DNA from: a virus
Lineage: Duplodnaviria > Heunggongvirae > Uroviricota > Caudoviricetes > Herelleviridae
DNA: 64,000 nt
IMG/VR virus record: IMGVR_UViG_2706795655_000001
Reading direction: 5' to 3' (one strand)
The notes under the pieces were generated by a model that ran no database searches, was not told the origin of the DNA, and saw only the letters and a list, made by a program, of their open reading frames with translations. The position numbers and the translations under genes were made by a program. Position 1 is the first letter of the stretch. The number at the start of each line of letters is the position of its first letter. Below, one piece after another: positions 1 to 42,151 of this stretch.

Positions 1-8
1 TATGTGTA

Positions 9-803
9 TCATTGTGTTTCTTCTCTATTCTTCTTTTCTATTTGTTTGTGTAGATATGCTGTATGTGCATTGTCTTTTGTTGTGAACAACTGTACTGGAT
101 GTCTCCCATGCAAAGCAATCTCTAATAACGTGTCAACATTGAAGATTAATGTTTCGTTCTCGTCCAAGTTGTTATCTTTGTCGATAGGTGCTGCGGAGAA
201 TGCTTCTAATGTAACTCCTAGTACCTTAAACTTTCCTGTAATAGTGCTATATGTCTTGTCAGATTCGATAAAGCGTTTTCCGTAGAAGATATCTCCAGCT
301 TTAGGTTTCCCTCTCCACAGCTCATTCTCCATTACTAACTTCTCTCTATATGTGAGTGCTTTTTCTTTTCCATCCGTTTCTTTGTATCCTATAAACGGTT
401 GTCGCATCATATCTTTTACAGAGAACAGATAATGTTCGTTAGGGTATAAATATGCATACCTACCTCTTTGTGTGGGTTCTGCCATAAACGTGTCTTCATA
501 CTCATTAATGCTTGTCACCGCTATTTCCACACATTTCCAATCTAAAAGCGGTTCTCCACCTACTACGTCACACTTATATAGGATGTCTCCTACCTCAATC
601 GGGAATGGTTCTTTCTCTTTCACTTCTGGTTCCTCCTCTTTTTGTTCTTCTACTTTTGGTTCTGGTTCTGGTTCTACTTCTGGTTCCGGGTCTATTTCCA
701 TTATCTCTGCTTCCACAAATGCATCGACAAGGCGCTTCTCTTCTGGTTCGTTTACGAATAGATGTTTAACTTTAGTGAACACACTTACCACATCGGCACC
801 CAC
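9..803 (-). CDS. Hypothetical protein, 264 aa, with Pro/Glu-rich linker
   Basis: Long ORF on the locally coding strand, overlapping the upstream stop; EPEPEP linker. Confidence 0.8.
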   Translation of the reverse strand: MGADVVSVFTKVKHLFVNEPEEKRLVDAFVEAEIMEIDPEPEVEPEPEPKVEEQKEEEPEVKEKEPFPIEVGDILYKCDVVGGEPLLDWKCVEIAVTSINEYEDTFMAEPTQRGRYAYLYPNEHYLFSVKDMMRQPFIGYKETDGKEKALTYREKLVMENELWRGKPKAGDIFYGKRFIESDKTYSTITGKFKVLGVTLEAFSAAPIDKDNNLDENETLIFNVDTLLEIALHGRHPVQLFTTKDNAHTAYLHKQIEKKNREETQ

Positions 804-1042
804 TCTCTGCTACCGTGTTTTGATTCAATCTCATCCATATATTCTCGTGTTGTTTCTTCATAGAACTCTTTACTTGCGTACTCTACACAATCTACGAATA
901 AGTCATCTAACTCACTATCACTGATTCCTTGCACCATTAACCACTCTTCTATATACGCTTTCTTTTCTCGTGCCTCTGCGAATAATTTAGCTGCTTCCGT
1001 AATTGCTCTTTCTACATCGATTGGTAACTTATGTTTTGACAT
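785..1042 (-). CDS. Hypothetical protein, 85 aa
   Basis: ORF tiles with neighbours; GGGG RBS upstream. Confidence 0.75.
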   Translation of the reverse strand: MSKHKLPIDVERAITEAAKLFAEAREKKAYIEEWLMVQGISDSELDDLFVDCVEYASKEFYEETTREYMDEIESKHGSREWVPMW

Positions 1043-1043
1043 A

Positions 1044-1214
1044 TTATTTCCCCCATTGTTCTCTATAGTATAATCGTCTATCTAATTGTTCTTTATATTC
1101 TTTTCGCTTCTGGAAAAAGTAAGCTCTCGTATGTAAGTTGTTATCTGTCTTGATAAGTTCCGTGAGCATTTCTATCTTCTGTTCTAGCACAATAATATAA
1201 GCTGGTTTACCCAT
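1044..1214 (-). CDS. Hypothetical protein, 56 aa (MGKPAYIIVLEQK...), below ORF-track cut-off
   Basis: Translated by hand; fills the gap exactly; GGAGGA RBS upstream. Confidence 0.7.
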   Translation of the reverse strand: MGKPAYIIVLEQKIEMLTELIKTDNNLHTRAYFFQKRKEYKEQLDRRLYYREQWGK

Positions 1215-1389
1215 TTTGTTCATCCTCCAGCATCTTCAATATCCTCCGGTAAGCTCTTAATTCTCCTACCCACCTATTATAACAAGCTATATGAGATTGA
1301 GATGTCAATCTTCCTACGTCCTCTTTTACCACTTCTTCTAGACACTGGATAGCTAGTTTTATATTCTCAATCACTTTTAGTCCCTCCAA
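1207..1389 (-). CDS. Hypothetical protein, 60 aa
   Basis: ORF tiling in operon. Confidence 0.65.
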   Translation of the reverse strand: MEGLKVIENIKLAIQCLEEVVKEDVGRLTSQSHIACYNRWVGELRAYRRILKMLEDEQNG

Positions 1390-1571
1390 TAATAAGTATC
1401 GCTATCCACTACATAAAGACTTAAATTCTCTTTTAACATTTCAATAAATTGGTCTTCCGGAACCTGTATGTACTGATATCCTTTATCCGTTTTGATTTCG
1501 ATACGGATTTCATTATCGAACCCGGTACCTGTTACATTGACATATCCGCCCCATAAATCGTTTTTTACCAT
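1377..1571 (-). CDS. Hypothetical protein, 64 aa
   Basis: ORF tiling; AAGGAG RBS. Confidence 0.7.
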   Translation of the reverse strand: MVKNDLWGGYVNVTGTGFDNEIRIEIKTDKGYQYIQVPEDQFIEMLKENLSLYVVDSDTYYWRD

Positions 1572-1819
1572 TGTTTTAGCTCCTTTATACGCATGGACTT
1601 TCGGTAGTACCCACCTACTGTGAACATAATGTAGTTTAGTACTTTAGATTTAAGTATAGGTATTCGTACCCATTCAAACTGCTTATCTAGTTCAGAACTA
1701 TATACATTTAACTGCTTGTCATCAATAGCTACGTTCGTCCCTTTCGCGTACATCCTACGTGCTAGTTTCTTATCCTTTGTTGCTTTAATTAGTTGTTTAT
1801 TACGTGTATGCCTTGTCAT
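1565..1819 (-). CDS. Hypothetical protein with MTRHTRNKQLIK N-terminal tag (copy A)
   Basis: GGGAGG RBS; shared N-terminus. Confidence 0.8.
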   Translation of the reverse strand: MTRHTRNKQLIKATKDKKLARRMYAKGTNVAIDDKQLNVYSSELDKQFEWVRIPILKSKVLNYIMFTVGGYYRKSMRIKELKQW

Positions 1820-2112
1820 TAGTTAAATGACCTCCCTCTCTTAACATCTATGTATCTCATACAAGGTATAGTAGATTTCTTCTCCCCTATCTGCAACTCT
1901 ATCGTAGAAGCAAAGTGGATTCGGTTTTTAGTAACACCGTTTATTTTATACCGTACCCACCTAAATGTACGGTCTGTAACTTCCAATCGCTTACACGACT
2001 CTTTAATTGTTAGGTTATACCCTGTAGGATAGTTCCATTTCGCAAACTTAACATCCTCCCCCTGCATCATATCTAGTTTAATTAGTTGTTTATTACGTGT
2101 ATGTCTTGTCAT
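1819..2112 (-). CDS. Hypothetical protein with MTRHTRNKQLIK tag (copy B)
   Basis: GGAGAG RBS 8 nt before the ATG at 2112, favoured over the track start at 2118. Confidence 0.8.
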   Translation of the reverse strand: MTRHTRNKQLIKLDMMQGEDVKFAKWNYPTGYNLTIKESCKRLEVTDRTFRWVRYKINGVTKNRIHFASTIELQIGEKKSTIPCMRYIDVKRGRSFN

Positions 2113-2381
2113 ACCCAATATCTCTCCAATCTTGAATCACTCTCATAACGTTGGTTAAATAGTTTATTATAATCCCCAGAACCATCTTTAAATAGACTTG
2201 CAATCATATCTTCACGACGCTTAATATCTCTCTGTAAGTCTTCAATTATACCTCGCTGTAAGCTTAGTTTAGCAGTCTTGTCTTCATAGCAGCTCTTACA
2301 TAGCAACTCGTACCTAAAAGCCATATAAATATCCACGCGGCTTACATCTTTATTGCAGCATCCACAACGCAGTTCCATCAC
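2109..2381 (-). CDS. Hypothetical zinc-finger/coiled-coil protein
   Basis: CGCC...CKSC followed by a heptad segment. Confidence 0.7.
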   Translation of the reverse strand: MMELRCGCCNKDVSRVDIYMAFRYELLCKSCYEDKTAKLSLQRGIIEDLQRDIKRREDMIASLFKDGSGDYNKLFNQRYESDSRLERYWV

Positions 2382-2566
2382 GCATTCCCCTTTTCTCGAA
2401 TCATAATTGCATGTATATCTTCTAATACCTGATACGCTAACTCCTTGTCCCCTTTTAATCGTTCAAACGGTACATCTACTAAAATTACAATTCCTGCGTA
2501 CCAGAAGGTGAACCCATCCTCATTTACAGTAAACGAAACTAAATCATTTAGTTCTATCATTCTCAC
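2378..2566 (-). CDS. Hypothetical protein, 62 aa
   Basis: ORF tiling; GGAGG RBS. Confidence 0.7.
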   Translation of the reverse strand: MRMIELNDLVSFTVNEDGFTFWYAGIVILVDVPFERLKGDKELAYQVLEDIHAIMIREKGNA

Positions 2567-2753
2567 TCATCCTCCCTACCGCTATAATTGCCATTTCATA
2601 TGCAAGCATGGCTCCTAAATACATGCCTCTTTCTAGTATTCTACCTTCACGGTCTGTAAAAGTATCGTGGTCTAAATCATCAAATTTCTTTAGGAACCGC
2701 TCCTGTCTATCATACTTACGTTCTAGCACCTCTATAAGCTTGTTAGCGTCCAC
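2544..2753 (-). CDS. Hypothetical protein (likely GTG start, MDANKLI...)
   Basis: GGAAGG RBS before the GTG at 2753. Confidence 0.65.
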   Translation of the reverse strand: MDANKLIEVLERKYDRQERFLKKFDDLDHDTFTDREGRILERGMYLGAMLAYEMAIIAVGRMSENDRTK

Positions 2754-2856
2754 GTTTCTTCCTTCCCTTCTTATCCTCCTTGTATCTTTCACGAGCATAC
2801 AAGAGGTCTAGTAGGCACCCTATAAGTTCTAATACTAACTCTATTAATGTATGCAT
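2743..2856 (-). CDS. Small protein, 37 aa, hydrophobic N-terminus and basic tail (MHTLIELVLELIGCLL...GRKKRGR)
   Basis: Translated by hand; GGAG RBS; ATG overlaps the upstream stop. Confidence 0.6.
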   Translation of the reverse strand: MHTLIELVLELIGCLLDLLYARERYKEDKKGRKKRGR

Positions 2857-3071
2857 TAATCTCCAACCTCCTTATAGATGGTACCATTTTCTCCTTTAAC
2901 TACCTCGTACTCACCTTCCTTTAATTCTGTTACGCTTACTATATCATGTCTACCTTTTATACCCTTTAGTACTAGCTCTAGTTGGAAGTCCTCTAGGGGC
3001 GACGTAATACCCCTAAAGAATACTTCGTTGTTGTTTTTCGGTATGTATATAACGCTGTATATTTTCCCCAT
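2856..3071 (-). CDS. Hypothetical protein, 71 aa
   Basis: ORF tiling. Confidence 0.7.
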   Translation of the reverse strand: MGKIYSVIYIPKNNNEVFFRGITSPLEDFQLELVLKGIKGRHDIVSVTELKEGEYEVVKGENGTIYKEVGD

Positions 3072-3074
3072 AAC

Positions 3075-3260
3075 CTATAAACCTATTAAATCTTCTATGT
3101 GCCAATCCACGTCTACAGATAAGATTGTTGGTGATATCCCTAGAACCTCTGCTACGCGCACCGTTTCTTCATTAAGTAAAGTTAAGTCGCCATTCTTGAT
3201 AAATGTTTCCGCTAGTCTAATGACCTCATCACTATACCTCTTCGTTGTCGTTATTTCCAT
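3075..3260 (-). CDS. Hypothetical protein (start MEITT...)
   Basis: AAAGGAG RBS before 3260; first gene after the promoter at 3323-3352. Confidence 0.7.
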   Translation of the reverse strand: MEITTTKRYSDEVIRLAETFIKNGDLTLLNEETVRVAEVLGISPTILSVDVDWHIEDLIGL

Positions 3261-3322
3261 TAGCAATTCTCCTTTCATCCTCGGCATATATACAAGGGAA
3301 GCATATCACCTTGTCATCCCAT

Positions 3323-3352
3323 ATTATACCACTACTTACTAGTTTCCCGCAA
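3323..3352 (-). promoter_or_regulatory. Promoter TTGCGG-18-TATAAT with TGG extension
   Basis: Consensus -10, weaker -35. Confidence 0.55.
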
Positions 3353-3378
3353 TCCCAACATTGCTCGACATCCACTTT

Positions 3379-3516
3379 TTATTCCTCCTCTGTTTTCTCG
3401 TCGATTCTGTCGATGTAGTCTCCTAGTTGTTCTGATGTAATGATATCTGCGTGATATAACTCATATACTGCTAGTGTTAATGCGTGTGCTTTTTCCACCG
3501 TAAACAGTTCGTCCAT
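3379..3516 (-). CDS. Hypothetical protein, 45 aa (MDELFTVEKAHAL...)
   Basis: Translated by hand; AAGGAGAG RBS. Confidence 0.7.
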   Translation of the reverse strand: MDELFTVEKAHALTLAVYELYHADIITSEQLGDYIDRIDEKTEEE

Positions 3517-3545
3517 AATTTACTCTCCTTTGTTGGTCATTTCTA

Positions 3546-3920
3546 CTACAAATCGAAGTCATACAGGTTTTTAATGCGGCTACGGAGTCGGTACAGCTCG
3601 TCTAGCTGCGCTTCATACCTAATGTATGTCACGTAATCGAATGACGTGTGCTGGTCTTCTACGACGTTGCGTTCTACATTCTTTTGCTTTCGTTCTTTCG
3701 CCTCTATCTCATCCTCGATGTCGAAGATGATGTTAATACTTGTATTGTATAAGTGTTCTAACATTTCTAATACTGCTTCCGCCACTACAAGCTCTTTGAA
3801 TGAGTTGTCTTTTCGTAAATAAGGAACTTCGAATTTTCTTCTCTCTTCAATCTTAATTTTCTCGTAATATTCGATTCTATCTTCCATTAAGTTTGCAATC
3901 TCTTTTACTATTTGCGCCAT
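3546..3920 (-). CDS. Hypothetical helical protein, 124 aa
   Basis: ORF with GGGTGG RBS. Confidence 0.75.
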   Translation of the reverse strand: MAQIVKEIANLMEDRIEYYEKIKIEERRKFEVPYLRKDNSFKELVVAEAVLEMLEHLYNTSINIIFDIEDEIEAKERKQKNVERNVVEDQHTSFDYVTYIRYEAQLDELYRLRSRIKNLYDFDL

Positions 3921-3923
3921 TTC

Positions 3924-4187
3924 TTACCACCCTTTCGTTTTAGCTGCGAAGTGTGTACCGTATGTATCTTCATTTCCCCCGAACTCTATCATATTATACG
4001 TTTTACTTTTAATACCTAGAATATCTCCCCAACCTTCGAAATTACGATGCCATTTAAAAGTTGCATCTAACTCTAAACCATCTGCTTTATAGTCCTCCCG
4101 CATTCTTTCTATAGTTAGGTTTTTCATACCGCTCCATAATCCCTCGGTAAGCTTGTCCATTTGTTTGTTACGTGTATGTCTTGTCAT
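3924..4187 (-). CDS. Hypothetical protein with MTRHTRNKQMDK tag (copy C)
   Basis: GGAGAGG RBS; shared N-terminus. Confidence 0.8.
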   Translation of the reverse strand: MTRHTRNKQMDKLTEGLWSGMKNLTIERMREDYKADGLELDATFKWHRNFEGWGDILGIKSKTYNMIEFGGNEDTYGTHFAAKTKGW

Positions 4188-4831
4188 TATAGCTCGTCCT
4201 CTCCTAAGTTAATTACATGTTCTTTAAGACACTTCGGTGTAACTTCGAACGCTCCTACATCATGTCTGCACATACCCATTTGTGTATCGTCTGTAGCGAA
4301 TTGGATAATTAGTCGTTGCAACAAATCTGCACTAGAAGCGCGTTTGTATTGACCTTTAACTTCTGCTAGTATTGACCCGTATTTTACGATATCACCGGGT
4401 ACATATTCTCTTGACTCTCTACCTACTTTTTTAAACTCCATTTCCATTCTATGGTTTTTGACTTCTTCCTCTGACATAACTCTATAATCACGTTCATCTA
4501 AGTATAGCCACGTTTCTCGTATTTGCTCATCCCAGCAAGCGTATACTTCGTTACCTTCAATTTTTGTAATCTTACCATTAAAAACACTCGAACCTTTTGT
4601 AGCTTCTACCCATTGACCAACTTCCGGTACGAATTTATATGTAGAAAATTCTTTTTCTAACAACCAGTTAAGAGATGCGTTATACTTATGCCACCCTGAC
4701 GTAGCGTTAACATTACTTAATTGCAGTTCACCTTTATTCATTCTAAATAGTACGTTAGGTGAAGACGTTTCGAAAACAACCTCCCCATCTAGTAAAGCAT
4801 CAATCGTTTGTTTATTTTTAAGTGTTGTCAT
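4187..4831 (-). CDS. Hypothetical protein, 214 aa
   Basis: GAGGAGG RBS directly after an early promoter. Confidence 0.8.
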   Translation of the reverse strand: MTTLKNKQTIDALLDGEVVFETSSPNVLFRMNKGELQLSNVNATSGWHKYNASLNWLLEKEFSTYKFVPEVGQWVEATKGSSVFNGKITKIEGNEVYACWDEQIRETWLYLDERDYRVMSEEEVKNHRMEMEFKKVGRESREYVPGDIVKYGSILAEVKGQYKRASSADLLQRLIIQFATDDTQMGMCRHDVGAFEVTPKCLKEHVINLGEDEL

Positions 4832-4863
4832 TTTATATTTCCTCCTCGTTATCTTATACCCTT

Positions 4864-4892
4864 ATATTACACTACCATTTACTTAAAGTCAA
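4864..4892 (-). promoter_or_regulatory. sigmaA-type early promoter TTGACT-17-TAATAT
   Basis: Consensus spacing; member of the TTGTT(G/T)AC(T/A)TT family. Confidence 0.8.
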
Positions 4893-4902
4893 CAAGTTTT
4901 TT

Positions 4903-4931
4903 AAGGAAAAGAGAGTATTTTTTACTCTCCT
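4903..4931 (-). terminator. Intrinsic terminator (GAGAGTA/TACTCTC stem + U tract)
   Basis: Hairpin seen directly. Confidence 0.6.
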
Positions 4932-5146
4932 TTGTTATTTCGTCTATAAGCTGCATCTATTTCCTGCCTAGCTTCTATTCTTTTCCATTCCCACGAGCGT
5001 ACAGTCTTCTTTCTTTGACACTTAGGGCAATAAATATGAATCTTCTCTAGATAAGAATATACAACACTTGATGTATCCGGCTCCATTTCTGTTGATACAT
5101 AATGAAAATCATGCTTACAGTTTAATATTTTAAATAGACTAAACAT
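4922..5146 (-). CDS. Small Cys/His protein, putative zinc ribbon
   Basis: CKHDF...YCPKC. Confidence 0.7.
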   Translation of the reverse strand: MFSLFKILNCKHDFHYVSTEMEPDTSSVVYSYLEKIHIYCPKCQRKKTVRSWEWKRIEARQEIDAAYRRNNKGE

Positions 5147-5155
5147 TTCATCCCC

Positions 5156-5425
5156 CTACTTCCATGTGCGGACATCCACTATTTTGAACATCTGGGCATC
5201 CACTAAGTTTATTTCACCTTTATCTGTCAAAAATAGTAAGTTAGTCATTTTAACTTCATGCCGCCGACGAGGAGAGAACCAGAAAAACCCTTTATCGATG
5301 ATTCCCATAGCTTTATATACTTGTCGATTTTCTTCGATTGTTGGTGTTTGCAACATGATGCTATTGATTGTAGCTTGTTTAATAGTTGCCTTGTTTAGTT
5401 GTTTGTATCGTACATGTCTAGTCAT
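5156..5425 (-). CDS. Hypothetical protein with MTRHVRYKQLNK tag (copy D)
   Basis: GGAGAGGGAG RBS; diverged tag. Confidence 0.8.
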   Translation of the reverse strand: MTRHVRYKQLNKATIKQATINSIMLQTPTIEENRQVYKAMGIIDKGFFWFSPRRRHEVKMTNLLFLTDKGEINLVDAQMFKIVDVRTWK

Positions 5426-5766
5426 TAAAATTCTCCCTCTCCTAAATACGATTCGATTGTTTGTTTCAATTGTTCGTTTTCTTCTTCTAAATCTTCCACT
5501 CGTTCTTCCAAATCACTTACGTCACCACATAACTCATCGTATGACTCCTCCAACTCTCTCGCTCTATCTTCAAGGTCATCATATTGGTCATCTAACTCTC
5601 GTGCTTGTTCTTCGATATCTTTCGCTAACTCTTCTAGTTTCTCATACATAACAGTAGATAGATGTTCGAAATTTTCATTAATAAACATTTCTACTAAGTC
5701 TCCCATATTAGTAGTTCGTGTTTTAGCTTTATAAACGTCGCAACCATTAATAATTAATCCGTCCAT
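5425..5766 (-). CDS. Acidic coiled-coil protein
   Basis: Heptad repeats LEDRARELEESYDEL...LEERVEDLEEENEQL. Confidence 0.75.
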   Translation of the reverse strand: MDGLIINGCDVYKAKTRTTNMGDLVEMFINENFEHLSTVMYEKLEELAKDIEEQARELDDQYDDLEDRARELEESYDELCGDVSDLEERVEDLEEENEQLKQTIESYLGEGEF

Positions 5767-6344
5767 TATGCTTCCTCCTTAAGATTAGCTATTTCTTCTT
5801 CCCAAGCTACAGCTTGTCTTGCGTAATAATCTGCGTAATGTTCGGATTCTTGTAACTTCTTCTCATAGCATTTGATACGATGAGCTTTCGTATGTTCGTC
5901 CCATTTCTTCTCAACTTCCCACATATCGCGCTGGTTACCTTGATATTTATAGACACCTAGACTCGTAACGACTTCCGCTTCAAAAGCAGGAGCAATCCAG
6001 TCACAACCATTACCACAGCATCGATTAACCGGGTCGTACCCTTCATCTTCCGGTTTACAATCGCAGTAACCCCACATTCTGTCGTCAGGTAGCAACTTAA
6101 TGTCGTAACGTCGTCCTGTGTCATGGATATACACTTGAATCGTTCCGTCTGTATACCCGCCTGTTCTATCCTTGTCATAGTCGATGTCGATACCATGTTC
6201 CTCCACATCTACTAAAAGAGTAGAAAGTACATCTGCATAATCTACCATGTTTTCATAGTGTCGGATAAGCGTTGCCATATCATCCGGTGATTCCCCTAAA
6301 ATAAATTCTTTCAATTTACCAAAAAACTTTTCTCCGAATTGCAT
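5766..6344 (-). CDS. Hypothetical protein with a Cys cluster
   Basis: GYCDC...RCCGNGCDW; AGGGG RBS. Confidence 0.8.
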   Translation of the reverse strand: MQFGEKFFGKLKEFILGESPDDMATLIRHYENMVDYADVLSTLLVDVEEHGIDIDYDKDRTGGYTDGTIQVYIHDTGRRYDIKLLPDDRMWGYCDCKPEDEGYDPVNRCCGNGCDWIAPAFEAEVVTSLGVYKYQGNQRDMWEVEKKWDEHTKAHRIKCYEKKLQESEHYADYYARQAVAWEEEIANLKEEA

Positions 6345-6405
6345 AATTCTCGTCCCCCTTGTATATACTCTTAATAAACAAACTTATTTAATTGTAAGTT
6401 ATGTA

Positions 6406-6567
6406 TTATCTCCTGCTGAACAAACTATATATGAAGTCTGCTATTGTTATAAAAATCCAAGCAATCCCTATTATGGTACCAAACAAGATTAGTCCTATCG
6501 GGTAGTAGTACCATTTCACATACCCGCTAGGTTTGTACCAATCTTTCAACGGGTTTAACCCCATCAT
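6406..6567 (-). CDS. Small membrane protein, 53 aa
   Basis: Translated by hand (MMGLNPLKDWYK...IGLILFGTIIGIAWIFITI); ATGA overlap with upstream gene. Confidence 0.65.
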   Translation of the reverse strand: MMGLNPLKDWYKPSGYVKWYYYPIGLILFGTIIGIAWIFITIADFIYSLFSRR

Positions 6568-6767
6568 CGTTTATCGTTTTCCTCTATAGTATTATTAATA
6601 ATAGCTGTAATTAAAGTTACACAGAAAGCAGCGAAAACTAGTAGCGATACGATAAGCGCTTTATTATCTACTGCATCATGATAAAAGTTCCATGCTGTTA
6701 CACCTAATGCTGCTGATATGACATTACCGCTATACTTAATAGCTCTTGTTTTTGTCGTAAGTTTCAT
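6564..6767 (-). CDS. Small two-helix membrane protein
   Basis: Two hydrophobic segments; AAGGAGG RBS. Confidence 0.7.
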   Translation of the reverse strand: MKLTTKTRAIKYSGNVISAALGVTAWNFYHDAVDNKALIVSLLVFAAFCVTLITAIINNTIEENDKR

Positions 6768-6769
6768 AA

Positions 6770-7378
6770 TTAGTTAGCCTCCTTAGTAATAACTTGCCCG
6801 TTTTCTTTTACTGGTGCTGCTTCGTTAAACGCTTCCGTCATAGAAGTGAGTTGTTTTGGTCGGTAGCATCGACTCTCTTGTTTGTTCTTCACTTGTTTAA
6901 TCTGTTCGATGCATTTTTTGAACTCTTTAGACAAGTTAGGATATTTTACTAGCATAAGTTTTAATGGTTGCGTAGCTTCTTCGAAGTTCTTAGCTCCACG
7001 ACGTTCCTCTGCAATCAGACCAATCTTGTCCCAGTTCGCAGCTTTCTCTTCTATTGTTAACCCCTTCAAGAACTCCGCACCATGATATAAATCTTGTCTA
7101 GCTTTGTCTAAGCGACCTACATCGTCGTAGGCTTGGTTGTGTGATTTAGGGTACTCAACCAGAACTGTACTCATAATCTCCATGTTAGCGATTACTTCTT
7201 CTGTAGAAGCGTATCCTAATGTCATTCCTTCTTCTTCTAACCATGCTTTACCTGATGTCGCTTGCACTTCATCATCTACTAGTTTAAAAGCTTCTTGTAA
7301 GCGCTCTTTCGCTGCTTTCGTCATTTTACCTGCTGTTACCACGTCTTGTAATAAATCTCTCACTTTTTTAAGTTCCAT
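6770..7378 (-). CDS. Hypothetical helical phage protein, 202 aa
   Basis: Long ORF; GAGGT RBS. Confidence 0.8.
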   Translation of the reverse strand: MELKKVRDLLQDVVTAGKMTKAAKERLQEAFKLVDDEVQATSGKAWLEEEGMTLGYASTEEVIANMEIMSTVLVEYPKSHNQAYDDVGRLDKARQDLYHGAEFLKGLTIEEKAANWDKIGLIAEERRGAKNFEEATQPLKLMLVKYPNLSKEFKKCIEQIKQVKNKQESRCYRPKQLTSMTEAFNEAAPVKENGQVITKEAN

Positions 7379-7484
7379 TGTTATGTACCTCTTTCTATTA
7401 TTTTATTTTTTCGTCTTCTATGTATTAATCATGGTGTTCGTTTTATATAGTTACTTTCAACTTATCACCTCCTCTATGAATCTA

Positions 7485-7513
7485 ATTCTATCATAGTATT
7501 CACTTAAAGTAAA
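7485..7513 (-). promoter_or_regulatory. Early promoter TTTACT-17-TAGAAT
   Basis: Same family context (TTGTTTACTTT). Confidence 0.7.
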
Positions 7514-7530
7514 CAACATTTTTCTACTTT

Positions 7531-7740
7531 TTATTCAATATGCCACCCGTAATCCACAAATTGTTGCGACCAATTTTCATGAGCAGCTTCTAAAAACTCG
7601 TCTAAATCTTCTTTTGAATCTCCATCCCATTCTGGGTCGTAATCTAATTCCCCTAATGTGAACTTTTCTTTCCTATTTTCACCCGCGAACCCGATACTAT
7701 AGTGGAACACTACGACTGTATCTTTATTGTATTTACTCAA
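7531..7740 (-). CDS. Hypothetical acidic protein, 69 aa
   Basis: ORF; GGAGGGG RBS. Confidence 0.75.
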   Translation of the reverse strand: MSKYNKDTVVVFHYSIGFAGENRKEKFTLGELDYDPEWDGDSKEDLDEFLEAAHENWSQQFVDYGWHIE

Positions 7741-8380
7741 AATGCACCCCTCCTACAAACTCCGTATAAAGACCTGTCGTTTTCGCAAAATCTAATTCTA
7801 CCTCTTCTTTCTTCTCGTAGTACTTGTCCATTGAATCTTCTGTGTATACGTGAGTCCAATCGTCCGGGTACTCTCCGTTTTCATGCTCCTCCGTTGTGAT
7901 TAATCGTTCTTCTAATTCATCTGATACCCACTCACAGAAGTTATCGTCCATTACTGTGATGATGTCACGTACAACATTCGCTTTATATTTTTCATTCCCG
8001 TTATACCAGCGCGTCTCCACTTCCGGTAACCCTTCACTACTAAAGAATGGTAAGTCAACCAGCTCATCTTTACCTATAGCGATATAATACATGTCACTAG
8101 CATACCCAAGTTTATGAGCTAACGAATCTCTCTTAATCTCTAGAGAAAGACCATCTAACGCACCATTCTTATAAAACGACATGTCTGTTTGTAGTGCATT
8201 TCGAATCGCTTTATTTGTTTTACCATTTAATGAGCGGAACCACACTGTAGCTTTCACTTGGTTAGAGTGATAAACGATTACCCCTTCTGTTAACGGTTCA
8301 ACTTCAATTAGACCATTAACAATTTTCTTTGTTGTCACAACTCTTTGTCCTACTTCAAATTCAACGAAAGTGTTATTCAT
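7733..8380 (-). CDS. Hypothetical protein, 215 aa
   Basis: Long ORF; GGAGG RBS. Confidence 0.8.
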   Translation of the reverse strand: MNNTFVEFEVGQRVVTTKKIVNGLIEVEPLTEGVIVYHSNQVKATVWFRSLNGKTNKAIRNALQTDMSFYKNGALDGLSLEIKRDSLAHKLGYASDMYYIAIGKDELVDLPFFSSEGLPEVETRWYNGNEKYKANVVRDIITVMDDNFCEWVSDELEERLITTEEHENGEYPDDWTHVYTEDSMDKYYEKKEEVELDFAKTTGLYTEFVGGVHFE

Positions 8381-8991
8381 TATTTCCCTTCCTCCCCATT
8401 CAATTGTTTACCCATAGCAAGTAGCATGTTTCTAAATACTGGTAAATCACCTCGATTGTCATACCCCATAGAATATGTGAAGATACGAGACTTGCCTAAA
8501 TTATGTGCCTGATACTGTCGGTATGCTTTTGCTTTATCTAATATTAAGAAGAACGCTACGTCTTCCCACTCTTTTGTTTCGAATGCAATATGTAATGTAC
8601 CAATTCCGTATGCTTTGCAATATGCCTCTTCGTCTGCGATAAATACCTCATCTCCGTTAATGTCCATCATTACGGTGTTTTCAACTTCTCCATACGGATA
8701 GATTGTAATTTCGCATTCCTCTCCATTACCCTCGTAGTAATCCTCGACTAGTTCCTCTGGTGTTTCGAACCACACTTCGTAGTCATCGTCCCATGTGTAC
8801 CGCATATCTTCACCATCATAGTAGTCTAATAGCTCGTCCACAAAAGGAATAAATCCTTTTCTCTCTCTTTGTACTACATGGAGTGCATCACATGTATAAC
8901 GATTATCCTCTGCTCCTTCATGGTGTTTACTATTAAACTCTTTTAACAACTCAATCTGCTTGTCCGTAAGTTCGAAAGTGATTTTAGTCAT
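8380..8991 (-). CDS. Hypothetical protein (start MTKITFEL...)
   Basis: GGAGGG RBS before 8991. Confidence 0.8.
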   Translation of the reverse strand: MTKITFELTDKQIELLKEFNSKHHEGAEDNRYTCDALHVVQRERKGFIPFVDELLDYYDGEDMRYTWDDDYEVWFETPEELVEDYYEGNGEECEITIYPYGEVENTVMMDINGDEVFIADEEAYCKAYGIGTLHIAFETKEWEDVAFFLILDKAKAYRQYQAHNLGKSRIFTYSMGYDNRGDLPVFRNMLLAMGKQLNGEEGK

Positions 8992-9295
8992 TCCAGATTC
9001 CCTCCTCGTCATCTAAAAGTTCCGCATCAGAGTCATCAAGGATAATTCCGTAAATTCCCGCTTGCTTAACGAAATCCTCCCAAGAACAGCAACCAGCCCA
9101 TTCATCTCCGTATTTAACATCCATCAGTTCTTTTCCATTTAATTCGATACTCATCCATCCATATCTATATCTGCAATATAAGTAATCCCCGTCGTCTGTC
9201 TTACCTTCGAATTGCGTAGGGCAAGCGTAGCATGTCTGTGATATTTTTTCTAACTTTACGTATCTTTTAAGTTGAGTAAACCTTATCGTCGTCAT
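8984..9295 (-). CDS. Hypothetical protein with CxxC (QTCYACPTQFEG)
   Basis: ORF tiling; N-terminus weakly resembles the MTRH tag. Confidence 0.75.
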   Translation of the reverse strand: MTTIRFTQLKRYVKLEKISQTCYACPTQFEGKTDDGDYLYCRYRYGWMSIELNGKELMDVKYGDEWAGCCSWEDFVKQAGIYGIILDDSDAELLDDEEGIWND

Positions 9296-9561
9296 TATAG
9301 TTCCCCTTCCCTATTTAAAATCTTCTCTACAGCGTTGTCAATCGCTTCTAGTAAATCTTCTACACTTTTAGCTTCACTTTCTCGTAAGTCCTTATGTAAT
9401 AATGCAACTAAAGCTTTTGAAACGTTAGCGTAGTACCCAACCACTTTATAATCGTAACCTACAACCTCATTCTTCTTATTCTTCTTTTCGTACTTCTCAT
9501 TGATGATAACGTTCATCGGGTCTGACGTAAGCTTGTACTTTTCTCCTACATAAATTTCCAT
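9295..9561 (-). CDS. Hypothetical phage protein (DUF5405-like by recollection)
   Basis: YKLTSD..N.IINEK pattern; AAGGAGGAGATAA RBS. Confidence 0.7.
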   Translation of the reverse strand: MEIYVGEKYKLTSDPMNVIINEKYEKKNKKNEVVGYDYKVVGYYANVSKALVALLHKDLRESEAKSVEDLLEAIDNAVEKILNREGEL

Positions 9562-9583
9562 TTGTTATCTCCTCCTTGATTTA

Positions 9584-9612
9584 ATATTACTACATTATTT
9601 ACTAAAAGTAAA
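9584..9612 (-). promoter_or_regulatory. Early promoter TTTACT-17-TAATAT
   Basis: Family member. Confidence 0.7.
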
Positions 9613-9630
9613 CAACTTTCTTTAAAAATT

Positions 9631-10131
9631 TTAATCCACTTTTTTGTACACTCTAAATCGAAATTTAGCTCCCATTTCTTCTATACCAGCTTTCGTTGCT
9701 GTTCTCTTATAGAAACGCTTATAAATATTTTTGTCGAACTCCGGAAAAAAGGAATCCGCATCATACTCTTTGTCGATTTCCGTTATGTATAATCTATTAG
9801 CCATCGGCATAAACTGTTTGTAAATAGAATCTCCACCGATTACCATTAGCTCTTTCTCGTCCTTGAAGTCGTTTAGTACTTCATGAATATTATGATATAT
9901 GCGTACATCCTTGTGTAGCGGCTTAAAATCTTTGTTTCTAGTAAGTACAATGTTAATCCTACCCGGTAAGAACTTCCCAATAGATAGGTGTGTCTTACTT
10001 CCCATAATTACAGGCTTACCCATCGTCTTTTCTTTAAACCAATTAAAGTCTTCTTTGCTTTTCCATAGCATCTGATTGTCTTTACCAATCTCCCTATTCT
10101 TACCATGTGCAGCTATTAGTGATATAATCAA
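9631..10131 (-). CDS. dfr: Dihydrofolate reductase
   Basis: IAAHGKNREIGKDNQMLW, VIMGSKT, LPGRINIVLTR, VIGGDSIY, YITEID motifs. Confidence 0.97.
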   Translation of the reverse strand: MIISLIAAHGKNREIGKDNQMLWKSKEDFNWFKEKTMGKPVIMGSKTHLSIGKFLPGRINIVLTRNKDFKPLHKDVRIYHNIHEVLNDFKDEKELMVIGGDSIYKQFMPMANRLYITEIDKEYDADSFFPEFDKNIYKRFYKRTATKAGIEEMGAKFRFRVYKKVD

Positions 10132-12937: not shown

Positions 12938-12966
12938 ATTATACTATGTTGTTTACTTAAAGTCAA
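12938..12966 (-). promoter_or_regulatory. Early promoter TTGACT-17-TATAAT heading the L33-like/thyA/kinase operon
   Basis: Near-perfect sigmaA consensus overlapping the upstream stop. Confidence 0.85.
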
Positions 12967-14381
12967 GCACTTTTATATTCTAATTCGTGTTTCTTAGCGA
13001 ATCTAGTAAGTGCTGCTTTTTCTTTTTCTGTAGCTACTCTATTGGCGAATCCTCTAGCTTGTACAATTCTATTCCCACGAATCTCTACAGTTACTAACGG
13101 CTTGTCCAATTCTTCATTGTCTCGTAGGAAAACAATAATCGTATCGCCCTTCGCTACCTTAGGTGCGTATGAAGCTACACAGTGATGTTGAGCATTACCT
13201 TCTGTAGCAATGTCTTTCATTTCTTTTGGAACTAATACACTGTATCCTTTCATCTTAGTCTCATATTTTTGGAAATATTCTTTCTGTTCATCGAATCGTT
13301 TCTTCGTCACTACATCTTCTACCAACTTATAATTTCTTGATGTAATATCATGACACAATTTAAGGGAGCGTGGATACTTGTCGAAGTCCTCATGTTCCAG
13401 TAATAAGCTTGTCTCGTAGTAGTCTTTATACTGACCTACCGCTTCACCAAACTCCATACCTTGCGTGACTAGGGCGCCGAACAATAAATATTCTACTAAT
13501 CTATGTACGTTTTTAACATTGTTTCTAGGTCTTAACACAAATCCCCAGAACATATACCCTTTGTAATGTCTTATGTCGTTCTTATTACACTTAATTATTT
13601 CTAAATAATCACTTACATCCGAATGACGAGTAAATTCTCTTAATCTGTTCTCTAGGTTGTACTCGACTTCCAGCTCTTTTATGTAAGCGACAACACCTCT
13701 ATATGTATCTAAATCTCTTTGCGTGGCATGCACTATGTTATGTACTGCGTTCATAAAATCGTCAGTATCCGTTGTATACTCGTTTAGAAACTTCAACTGC
13801 GATTTCGTTACACCGAAAATCTGATGTAACTTTGTCTTACCCTCTTCCATACTCGCGTTGTATACTTTATTTCTAAAAGCAGAGTTAGACATAGCTCCTA
13901 TATCGATACCGGACTTGTAAATTAACTCCAATTTATTGTAGCTAGTCATGAGTCGGATAAGCGCCCGGGATGACATGTTAACTACTTCTTCTCCTAAAGA
14001 CCCAATTACACTTACCATCTTCTCGTACATGCCCTCATTCTCTTCTACAGACACCATATCAAAGAAAATCTTTTTGTTCTCGCTACTGTAAAAATCATGG
14101 TGATACCAACCGTCTTTAGGTCGAGGAATCACTAAATCTAAATTATGTATATTGAACTTTACTTCTCTACCATTTCTTTTTATGTAATATTTCTTGTACC
14201 GTAAATCGTACAACATTTCCGTTAAAACTAGGTTTCCATTGTCGTTTGTGTACGTCGCATAGAAATGAAAGGAATATCCTGTCTTCTCAACCATATAATA
14301 GTTTACATGACCGATAGTTTGTGTTAGCTCCAATTCCCCATTTTTAATCTGGTCTAGCACTTCGTTTTTCTCTTTGCTCAC
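12963..14381 (-). CDS. PcfJ-like domain protein, 472 aa
   Basis: C-terminal EGNAQHHCVASY...IIVFLRD...PLVTVEI...IVQARGFANR. Confidence 0.8.
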   Translation of the reverse strand: MSKEKNEVLDQIKNGELELTQTIGHVNYYMVEKTGYSFHFYATYTNDNGNLVLTEMLYDLRYKKYYIKRNGREVKFNIHNLDLVIPRPKDGWYHHDFYSSENKKIFFDMVSVEENEGMYEKMVSVIGSLGEEVVNMSSRALIRLMTSYNKLELIYKSGIDIGAMSNSAFRNKVYNASMEEGKTKLHQIFGVTKSQLKFLNEYTTDTDDFMNAVHNIVHATQRDLDTYRGVVAYIKELEVEYNLENRLREFTRHSDVSDYLEIIKCNKNDIRHYKGYMFWGFVLRPRNNVKNVHRLVEYLLFGALVTQGMEFGEAVGQYKDYYETSLLLEHEDFDKYPRSLKLCHDITSRNYKLVEDVVTKKRFDEQKEYFQKYETKMKGYSVLVPKEMKDIATEGNAQHHCVASYAPKVAKGDTIIVFLRDNEELDKPLVTVEIRGNRIVQARGFANRVATEKEKAALTRFAKKHELEYKSA

Positions 14382-14425
14382 TTTATTCCTCCTCTTGTTA
14401 TTTACTAAATGTTAACTACAAATCT

Positions 14426-17961: not shown

Positions 17962-17991
17962 ATCTTATCATCATAGTTTTCTAAAAGTCAA
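17962..17991 (-). promoter_or_regulatory. Early promoter TTGACT-18-TAAGAT
   Basis: Family member after the lysin terminator. Confidence 0.6.
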
Positions 17992-18005
17992 CAAGTTTTT
18001 TGCAT

Positions 18006-25130: not shown

Positions 25131-25159
25131 ACAATAGCACCTTATTTCCTAAATGTCAA
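25131..25159 (-). promoter_or_regulatory. Early promoter TTGACA-17-TATTGT for the XRE operon
   Basis: Family member. Confidence 0.7.
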
Positions 25160-25239
25160 CAACATTACCTAATTAGTTTTAAGTAAATTCTACACTACCT
25201 AGTATATCTTTTCTGAGTACAAGTTATTCCTTAAAAATA

Positions 25240-42113: not shown

Positions 42114-42122
42114 ATTTTCTTG

Positions 42123-42151
42123 TTGACTTTTGGGAAATGCCTAATTATACT
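42123..42151 (+). promoter_or_regulatory. Early promoter TTGACT-17-TATACT
   Basis: Family member. Confidence 0.8.

Follow-up and report, generated by a model that had tools for sequence, protein, structure and literature searches.

Four small genes with a common N-terminal peptide in a Bastille-like Bacillus phage very probably belong to one diverged family of basic proteins

We analyzed a 64,000-nucleotide stretch, hereafter the window, of IMG/VR virus record IMGVR_UViG_2706795655_000001, a Bastille-like myophage (Herelleviridae) of the Bacillus cereus group, in which four small genes encode proteins sharing a 12-residue N-terminal tag. The window is about 94% identical to phage BillyBob over this stretch. 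The four genes, here called A, B, C and D, are real open reading frames (ORFs) of the minus strand (Table 1) and sit in a left-arm cluster of small hypothetical genes, and relatives of this phage carry the family genes at the same genomic position. Their products start with MTRHTRNKQLIK (both A and B), MTRHTRNKQMDK (C) and MTRHVRYKQLNK (D). A first-pass annotation made from the sequence alone had listed these ORFs, the shared N-termini and the positions of the tag DNA, all of which were confirmed exactly. It had also assigned each gene its own ribosome-binding site (RBS), and we found a GGAG-type RBS 9–11 nucleotides before each start, the remaining upstream sequences being dissimilar. All four start codons overlap the stop codon of the preceding gene, three times as TAATG and once as ATGA. 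The start of B was placed at ATG 2112 and not at TTG 2118, because the GGAGAG RBS lies 9 nucleotides from the former and 3 from the latter, and the family alignment agrees with this choice. B orthologues (for example, positions 5807-6106 of the BillyBob locus, L001) are annotated two codons too long, with a TTG start and 99 residues. Tag DNA formed the strongest direct-repeat family of the first 10 kb, and a six-frame scan together with a hidden Markov model (HMM) scan found exactly four copies of the tag in the window.

The four proteins had been described as otherwise unrelated, with similarity stopping after residue 12–14. This description did not hold. In a MAFFT alignment of A–D, six positions past the tag (I32, D45, F48, W50, N62 and T67) were invariant. 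When residues 1–14 were removed, Smith-Waterman comparisons evaluated against 1000 shuffles still gave z-scores of 6.8 for A–B, 5.4 for C–D and 4.7 for A–C, and these local alignments centred on a common motif, [LI]-D-x-x-F-x-W-x-R, which we call motif 2. A third, weaker motif, N-x-I-x-F, was also common to the four proteins. Full-length matches to phrog_1208 were found for A (E = 2.6e-21), B (1.7e-24) and D (2.7e-26), while C matched phrog_2487 over its full length (E = 3.2e-27) and phrog_1208 across residues 1–68 (E = 1.4e-13). After removal of the 12 tag residues, all four bodies still matched phrog_1208 (A, 1.8e-10; B, 1.4e-13; C, 7e-4; D, 6.9e-16), and tag-less C still matched phrog_2487 (E = 4.8e-17). 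Besides, an HMM built only from the bodies of prophage members recognized tag-less C (E = 2.7e-13) and B (E = 1e-3). Judged from these alignments and profile matches, homology extends over about three quarters of the length of A–D, and the four proteins are ordinary members of catalogued, uncharacterised PHROG families. Full-length homology was the outcome that the first-pass annotation itself had named as refuting its reading, and these tests came out that way. A third family, phrog_3864, was linked to both phrog_1208 and phrog_2487; all three are labelled 'unknown function', and their proteins have the same arm, the same LD..F.W motif and a variable tail, with no difference in kind. We consider it very probable that A–D are old, diverged paralogues of one basic protein family of B. 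cereus-group phages, in which the tag is the conserved arm of one domain family and no portable label.

Table 1. Coordinates of the four paralogues, their conserved segments and the promoter-type elements in the window
Feature	Position	Strand	Remarks
Paralogue A	1565..1819	-	84 residues, isoelectric point (pI) 10.3; TAATG, start overlaps stop of B
Paralogue B	1819..2112	-	97 residues, pI 10.2; true start ATG 2112, not TTG 2118
Paralogue C	3924..4187	-	87 residues, pI 8.0; tail type EGWG...IEFGG..YG, also in prophage members
Paralogue D	5156..5425	-	89 residues, pI 10.2; tag variant MTRHVRYKQ, subfamily-specific
Tag codons 1-12 of A	1784..1819	-	35 of 36 nucleotides same as B
Tag codons 1-12 of B	2077..2112	-	
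Tag codons 1-12 of C	4152..4187	-	
Tag codons 1-12 of D	5390..5425	-	
Motif 2 of A, LDKQFEWVR	1664..1690	-	
Motif 2 of B, TDRTFRWVR	1951..1977	-	
Motif 2 of C, LDATFKWHR	4044..4070	-	opens predicted strand 1; best-modelled block, predicted local distance difference test score (pLDDT) 81
Motif 2 of D, IDKGFFWFS	5273..5299	-	
Early-type sigma-A promoter, TTGACT-17-TAATAT in conserved 20-nucleotide box	4864..4892	-	heads operon with C, B and A
Second copy of promoter box	7485..7513	-	heads operon with D
20-nucleotide box, minus-strand copies	4877-4896, 7498-7517, 9597-9616, 12951-12970, 14400-14419, 17976-17995, 25144-25163	-	
20-nucleotide box, plus-strand copies	12948-12967, 42119-42138	+	

The occurrence of the tag in other phages leads to the same reading. 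We scanned 2.9 million viral contigs (IMG/VR) for DNA encoding MTRHTRN[KR]Q and found 39 ORFs, located in 12 contigs of about 145–165 kb and one 18-kb fragment. In all 39, motif 2 followed at the same position, either intact or degenerate (LDPNFH, LDHTYNY). Judged from what follows it, the exact tag in this collection is confined to one family and never occurs on foreign cargo. The earlier suggestion of an address tag grafted onto diverse cargo, as in phage T4, does not survive the homology of the bodies and this restriction. What remains of it is the modular design as such: a constant N-terminus joined to variable C-terminal parts is a real theme of the family, and a portable tag on unrelated cargo is not.

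The family is confined to phages of the B. cereus group. An exhaustive profile search of 1.84 billion representative sequences returned only 20 clusters, 19 of which matched from residue 1–3. A database clustered at 90% identity yielded 66 clusters, and those with a name, on whose source names the taxonomic range rests, were all from Bacillus phages or B. cereus-group genomes. A scan of species-representative genomes gave 21 pattern matches, none of which was a relative confirmed by tblastn. Relatives annotated as 'hypothetical protein' occur in Bacillus phages BillyBob, B4/B5S, Spock, BigBertha, Flapjack, SWEP1, vB_BcgM, Bastille and Evoli and in B. cereus-group prophages. Myophages carry 4–6 copies per genome and temperate phages 1–2. 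The bacterial copies belong to temperate prophages and lie between a replication module (ERF, DnaC-like, YopX, dUTPase) and terminase, and clustering of the neighbours at 36 temperate loci revealed no constantly adjacent partner gene. In one prophage (L002), a 13-bp GC-rich hairpin at 8290-8323 lies directly 3' of the family gene, which appears to end a transcription unit there. BillyBob, the closest relative, has a fifth member (L001 3371-3808) of the phrog_3864 type, which has 145 residues, the tag form MTRHTRVKQ and a motif 2 degraded to LDASFH. Its locus corresponds to a site about 600 nucleotides past the left end of the window, and a fifth member is probably present in the phage analyzed here as well. 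Orthologues of D (P0010, P0029-P0035) retain the tag variant of that gene.

The architecture of the family consists of the near-invariant N-terminal arm M-(T)-R-H-T-R-N-[KR]-Q, a variable middle helix, and motif 2, which opens a small three-stranded sheet whose outer strands and tail are variable and shuffled among members. In an alignment of 61 sequences (A3), H4, R6, Q9, D41, F44 and W46 were invariant, and R3 and K12 were nearly so (61–64 aligned members). The arm begins at residue 1–5 in every member; longer annotated N-termini are probably miscalled, since in some relatives the two ATGs are separated by a stop codon. The spacer from arm to motif 2 is 28–41 residues long and the tail 15–86 residues. 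Most members have about 70–130 residues and the longest 195, without a Pfam domain, and a search for longer or fused forms of 232–2000 residues found none. Segment typing across the family distinguished 17 middle types, 34 tail types and 47 combinations. For example, identical tails occurred on two or three unrelated middles, and one middle was found with at least eight tails. Recombination therefore exchanges segments around the conserved motif 2. In two prophage members the arm is degenerate (L031 5937-6234, MSRHYRLIG...; L029 426-702, MRCYRLRG...) and motif 2 and the tail are kept; decay of the arm thus need not entail loss of the remaining domain.

Upstream of these genes lie elements of one promoter type (Table 1). 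A 20-nucleotide box, GTTGTT[GT]ACTTT[AT]AGT[AG]AAT, which includes the -35 element, occurs nine times in the window, compared with 0.11 expected, mostly on the minus strand and in the left 25 kb. Three of the copies extend to 44-nucleotide repeats that include the -10 element (4859-4902, 7480-7523 and 9579-9622). This box probably represents the early promoter class of the phage, and the position of A–D behind its copies suggests an early context for them. A minus-strand hairpin followed by a T-run (4911-4929) lies immediately upstream of the promoter at 4864-4892 and looks like a terminator/promoter junction between the operon with D and the operon with C, B and A.

With regard to function, AlphaFold2 models computed with the family alignment (C, pLDDT 70.8; D, pLDDT 60.5) had the same order of elements, helix-helix-strand-strand-strand, in which the tag is helical, a second helix follows, and the first of three strands starts at motif 2. 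No residue types other than Arg, His, Thr, Asn, Lys and Gln occur in the arm. The median pI of the family is 10.1, with values above 9 in 95% of members, and the net charge of A, B and D is +8 to +13. We favour nucleic-acid binding because the arm has only residue types that read nucleic acids and because 95% of the pIs exceed 9. In such a model the arm would lie in a DNA or RNA groove, and the alpha/beta body and variable tail would set the context or recruit other factors. The proteins may then be small early products that modulate DNA transactions or the expression of host or phage genes. That a small alpha/beta domain carries a nucleic-acid-binding arm is a tentative proposal, which we rate as somewhat less than an even chance; the paralogue family together with nucleic-acid-binding early modulators, taken as the whole explanation, falls just short of evens.

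Several observations weigh against nucleic-acid binding. The confidence of the AlphaFold2 models is moderate to low. C is nearly neutral (pI 8.0), and basicity by itself predicts nucleic-acid binding poorly. Conservation of the arm extends to every position on all helical faces, as would be expected just as well of a linear docking peptide. Profile searches of Pfam, NCBIfam and PDB sequences were empty, and no nucleic-acid-binding fold or family was found; with the model of C, a Foldseek search of PDB gave nothing below E = 1, a wide VIA-align search reached at most Z = 2.6 and covered only the sheet (residues 40–87), and an ESM-Atlas shape search gave template modelling (TM) scores of at most 0.36. 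Finally, neither hairpins nor candidate target sites recurred near the genes (window 1-10000). Among further searches, BFVD queried with the C model gave no matches beyond family members and further uncharacterised proteins of Bacillus phages, an ESM-Atlas language-model search with D returned only unnamed viral clusters at a score of 0.84, which is chance level, and PADLOC contained no relative. An HTH_17/Xis-like recognition unit, suggested by eye from 'TIKESCKRLEVTDRTFRWVR', was rejected: there was no Pfam match even at E <= 10, the spacing between the 'TIxE' helix and the 'D.TF.W' segment varies by indels of 4–5 residues, and AlphaFold2 makes the latter segment a strand.

One parallel is offered by the lambdoid N and Nun proteins, whose arginine-rich N-terminal motifs bind boxB RNA. 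Like them, A–D would have an N-terminal, basic and probably helical arm (Arg, Asn, Gln, His, Thr) on a small early phage protein. In contrast, the arm of the present family has only two or three Arg, fewer than the five or more of an arginine-rich motif of this type, the predicted protein is folded (helix-helix-strand-strand-strand) and not disordered, and multiple paralogues occur per genome. The leader that follows the promoter at 4864 is only about 30 nucleotides long, and no nut-like family of repeated hairpins was found in window 1-10000, where no dedicated RNA search was made. The family also resembles the small-domain expansions of large phages, in which multi-copy, fast-evolving small paralogues cluster in the accessory or early arm. 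It differs from the zinc-ribbon type of such expansions in having no Cys/His metal site and far fewer copies (4–6), and in occurring in temperate phages as well.

Residues 2–9 are all conserved whatever their helical face, a pattern known from short linear motifs, and this would also suit protein-protein docking, in which the constant arm and the LD..F.W core would bind one conserved host machine (such as RNA polymerase, the ribosome or Clp protease) and the shuffled segments would bind diverse targets, the paralogues forming an arms-race panel of adaptors or inhibitors, for example in anti-defence. The exchange of tails and middles described above (17 middles, 34 tails, 47 combinations) and the lack of a conserved neighbouring partner gene at the 36 temperate loci are consistent with this proposal. 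Besides, virulent myophages share the family with temperate phages that are unrelated to them but infect the same host group, which makes a host-encoded target likelier than a phage-encoded one. However, diversifying tails are also expected from neutral drift of small accessory proteins, and the extreme basicity would be unusual for a pure protein-protein adaptor. We regard docking as the main rival, though a rather unlikely one. Its most specific version is less probable still, and we think it unlikely: here the arm and core would form a docking module for one B. cereus-group host machine, the middles and tails would be interchangeable target-binding modules, and the proteins would be undescribed adaptors or inhibitors, for example of counter-defence, common to virulent and temperate phages.

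Whether selection acts on the peptide or on its DNA could be judged from the codons of the tag. The synonymous codon differences noted at the conserved residues in the first-pass annotation (ACA/ACT, AGG/AGA, CGT/CGA, AAT/AAC and AAA/AAG) are real, and so is its conclusion that selection acts on the peptide rather than on a DNA site only. Across 79 distinct family tags, the proportion of synonymous differences (pS) was 0.675 and that of nonsynonymous differences (pN) was 0.111, giving pN/pS = 0.165, and the invariant Arg6 is encoded by five codons from both codon boxes (CGT, AGA, CGA, AGG and CGC). Peptide-level selection is clear from these values. A smaller nucleotide-level component is also present. 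Among divergent members, the same codon was used at identical tag residues in 61% of cases versus 42% expected, whereas motif 2 showed no such excess (41% versus 44% expected). The native starts are rich in A (48%), and among 80 genes they were less folded than their synonymous recodings in 90% of cases. Selection for a translation start that is A-rich and unstructured is the best explanation of the mild additional conservation of tag codons and is sufficient to account for it, and local gene conversion may contribute.

This nucleotide-level signal could be taken further, to mean that selection acts mainly on the tag DNA or mRNA, which would serve as a translation-initiation cassette and/or as a recombination anchor that homogenises and shuffles the 5' ends of the paralogues. 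The excess of same-codon use in the tag and the weakly structured native starts suit this proposal, as do the abrupt divergence of A and B past a tag in which they share 35 of 36 nucleotides and the mosaic junctions, which indicate recombination inside these genes. On the other hand, synonymous sites of the tag are near saturation while its amino acids hardly change, Arg6 uses five codons, the upstream RBS regions are unconserved between paralogues, and an initiation cassette has no need for invariant His, Arg and Gln. We consider a cassette of this kind very unlikely as the main explanation.

The tag could also form an amino-terminal Cu(II)/Ni(II)-binding (ATCUN) site. By the rules of methionine aminopeptidase, MTRH (Met removed) and MRH (Met kept) would both place His third in the mature chain, and His occupies this position in 74 of the 79 distinct tags. 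Tyr replaces it in the other five, the six residues after His are equally conserved although ATCUN does not require them, and free Cu(II) is scarce in the cytoplasm; such a site is highly improbable. In phage T4, the capsid-targeting sequence of IPI–III is carried by unrelated late proteins and is cleaved off by the prohead protease. A virion-loading signal of this type, sending A–D into proheads for co-injection, has in its favour only that several small phage proteins begin strictly with a short conserved peptide, and it is the least probable of all, since the cargos are homologous and not diverse, the operons lie behind early-type promoters far from the head genes, the prophage copies lie with replication and accessory genes upstream of terminase, no cleavage motif of an acidic or protease type is evident after the tag, and myophages and siphophages, whose head modules are unrelated, carry the same tag.

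In four soil 'metatranscriptome' runs, contigs contained a relative about 95% identical over nearly all of 1400-5600. These contigs are no evidence of transcription, since such libraries may include DNA and the contigs carry no strand information. They break exactly at the tag repeats of A and B (1790-1810 and 2083-2106), since the 35/36-nucleotide repeat disturbs assembly. The same phage-like sequence was also observed in RNA-library runs under many different study codes.

Literature searches with the tag peptides, the PHROG identifiers, early genes of the Bastille group and virion proteomes returned nothing on the family, and the literature searched described neither the links among the three PHROG families nor the prophage distribution nor the mosaic structure. 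New here are the tag-less homology tests, the confinement of the tag to one family, the prophage distribution, the mosaic middles and tails, and the explanation of codon conservation. These results remove a false lead, as the window has no portable address tag on unrelated cargo, and leave a compact, experimentally tractable orphan family whose nine-residue arm hardly varies between virulent and temperate phages of the B. cereus group. Identifying the binding target of the arm would give a function to a number of early genes in every Bastille-like phage, a group relevant to biocontrol, and would unite the three PHROG families in a single superfamily.

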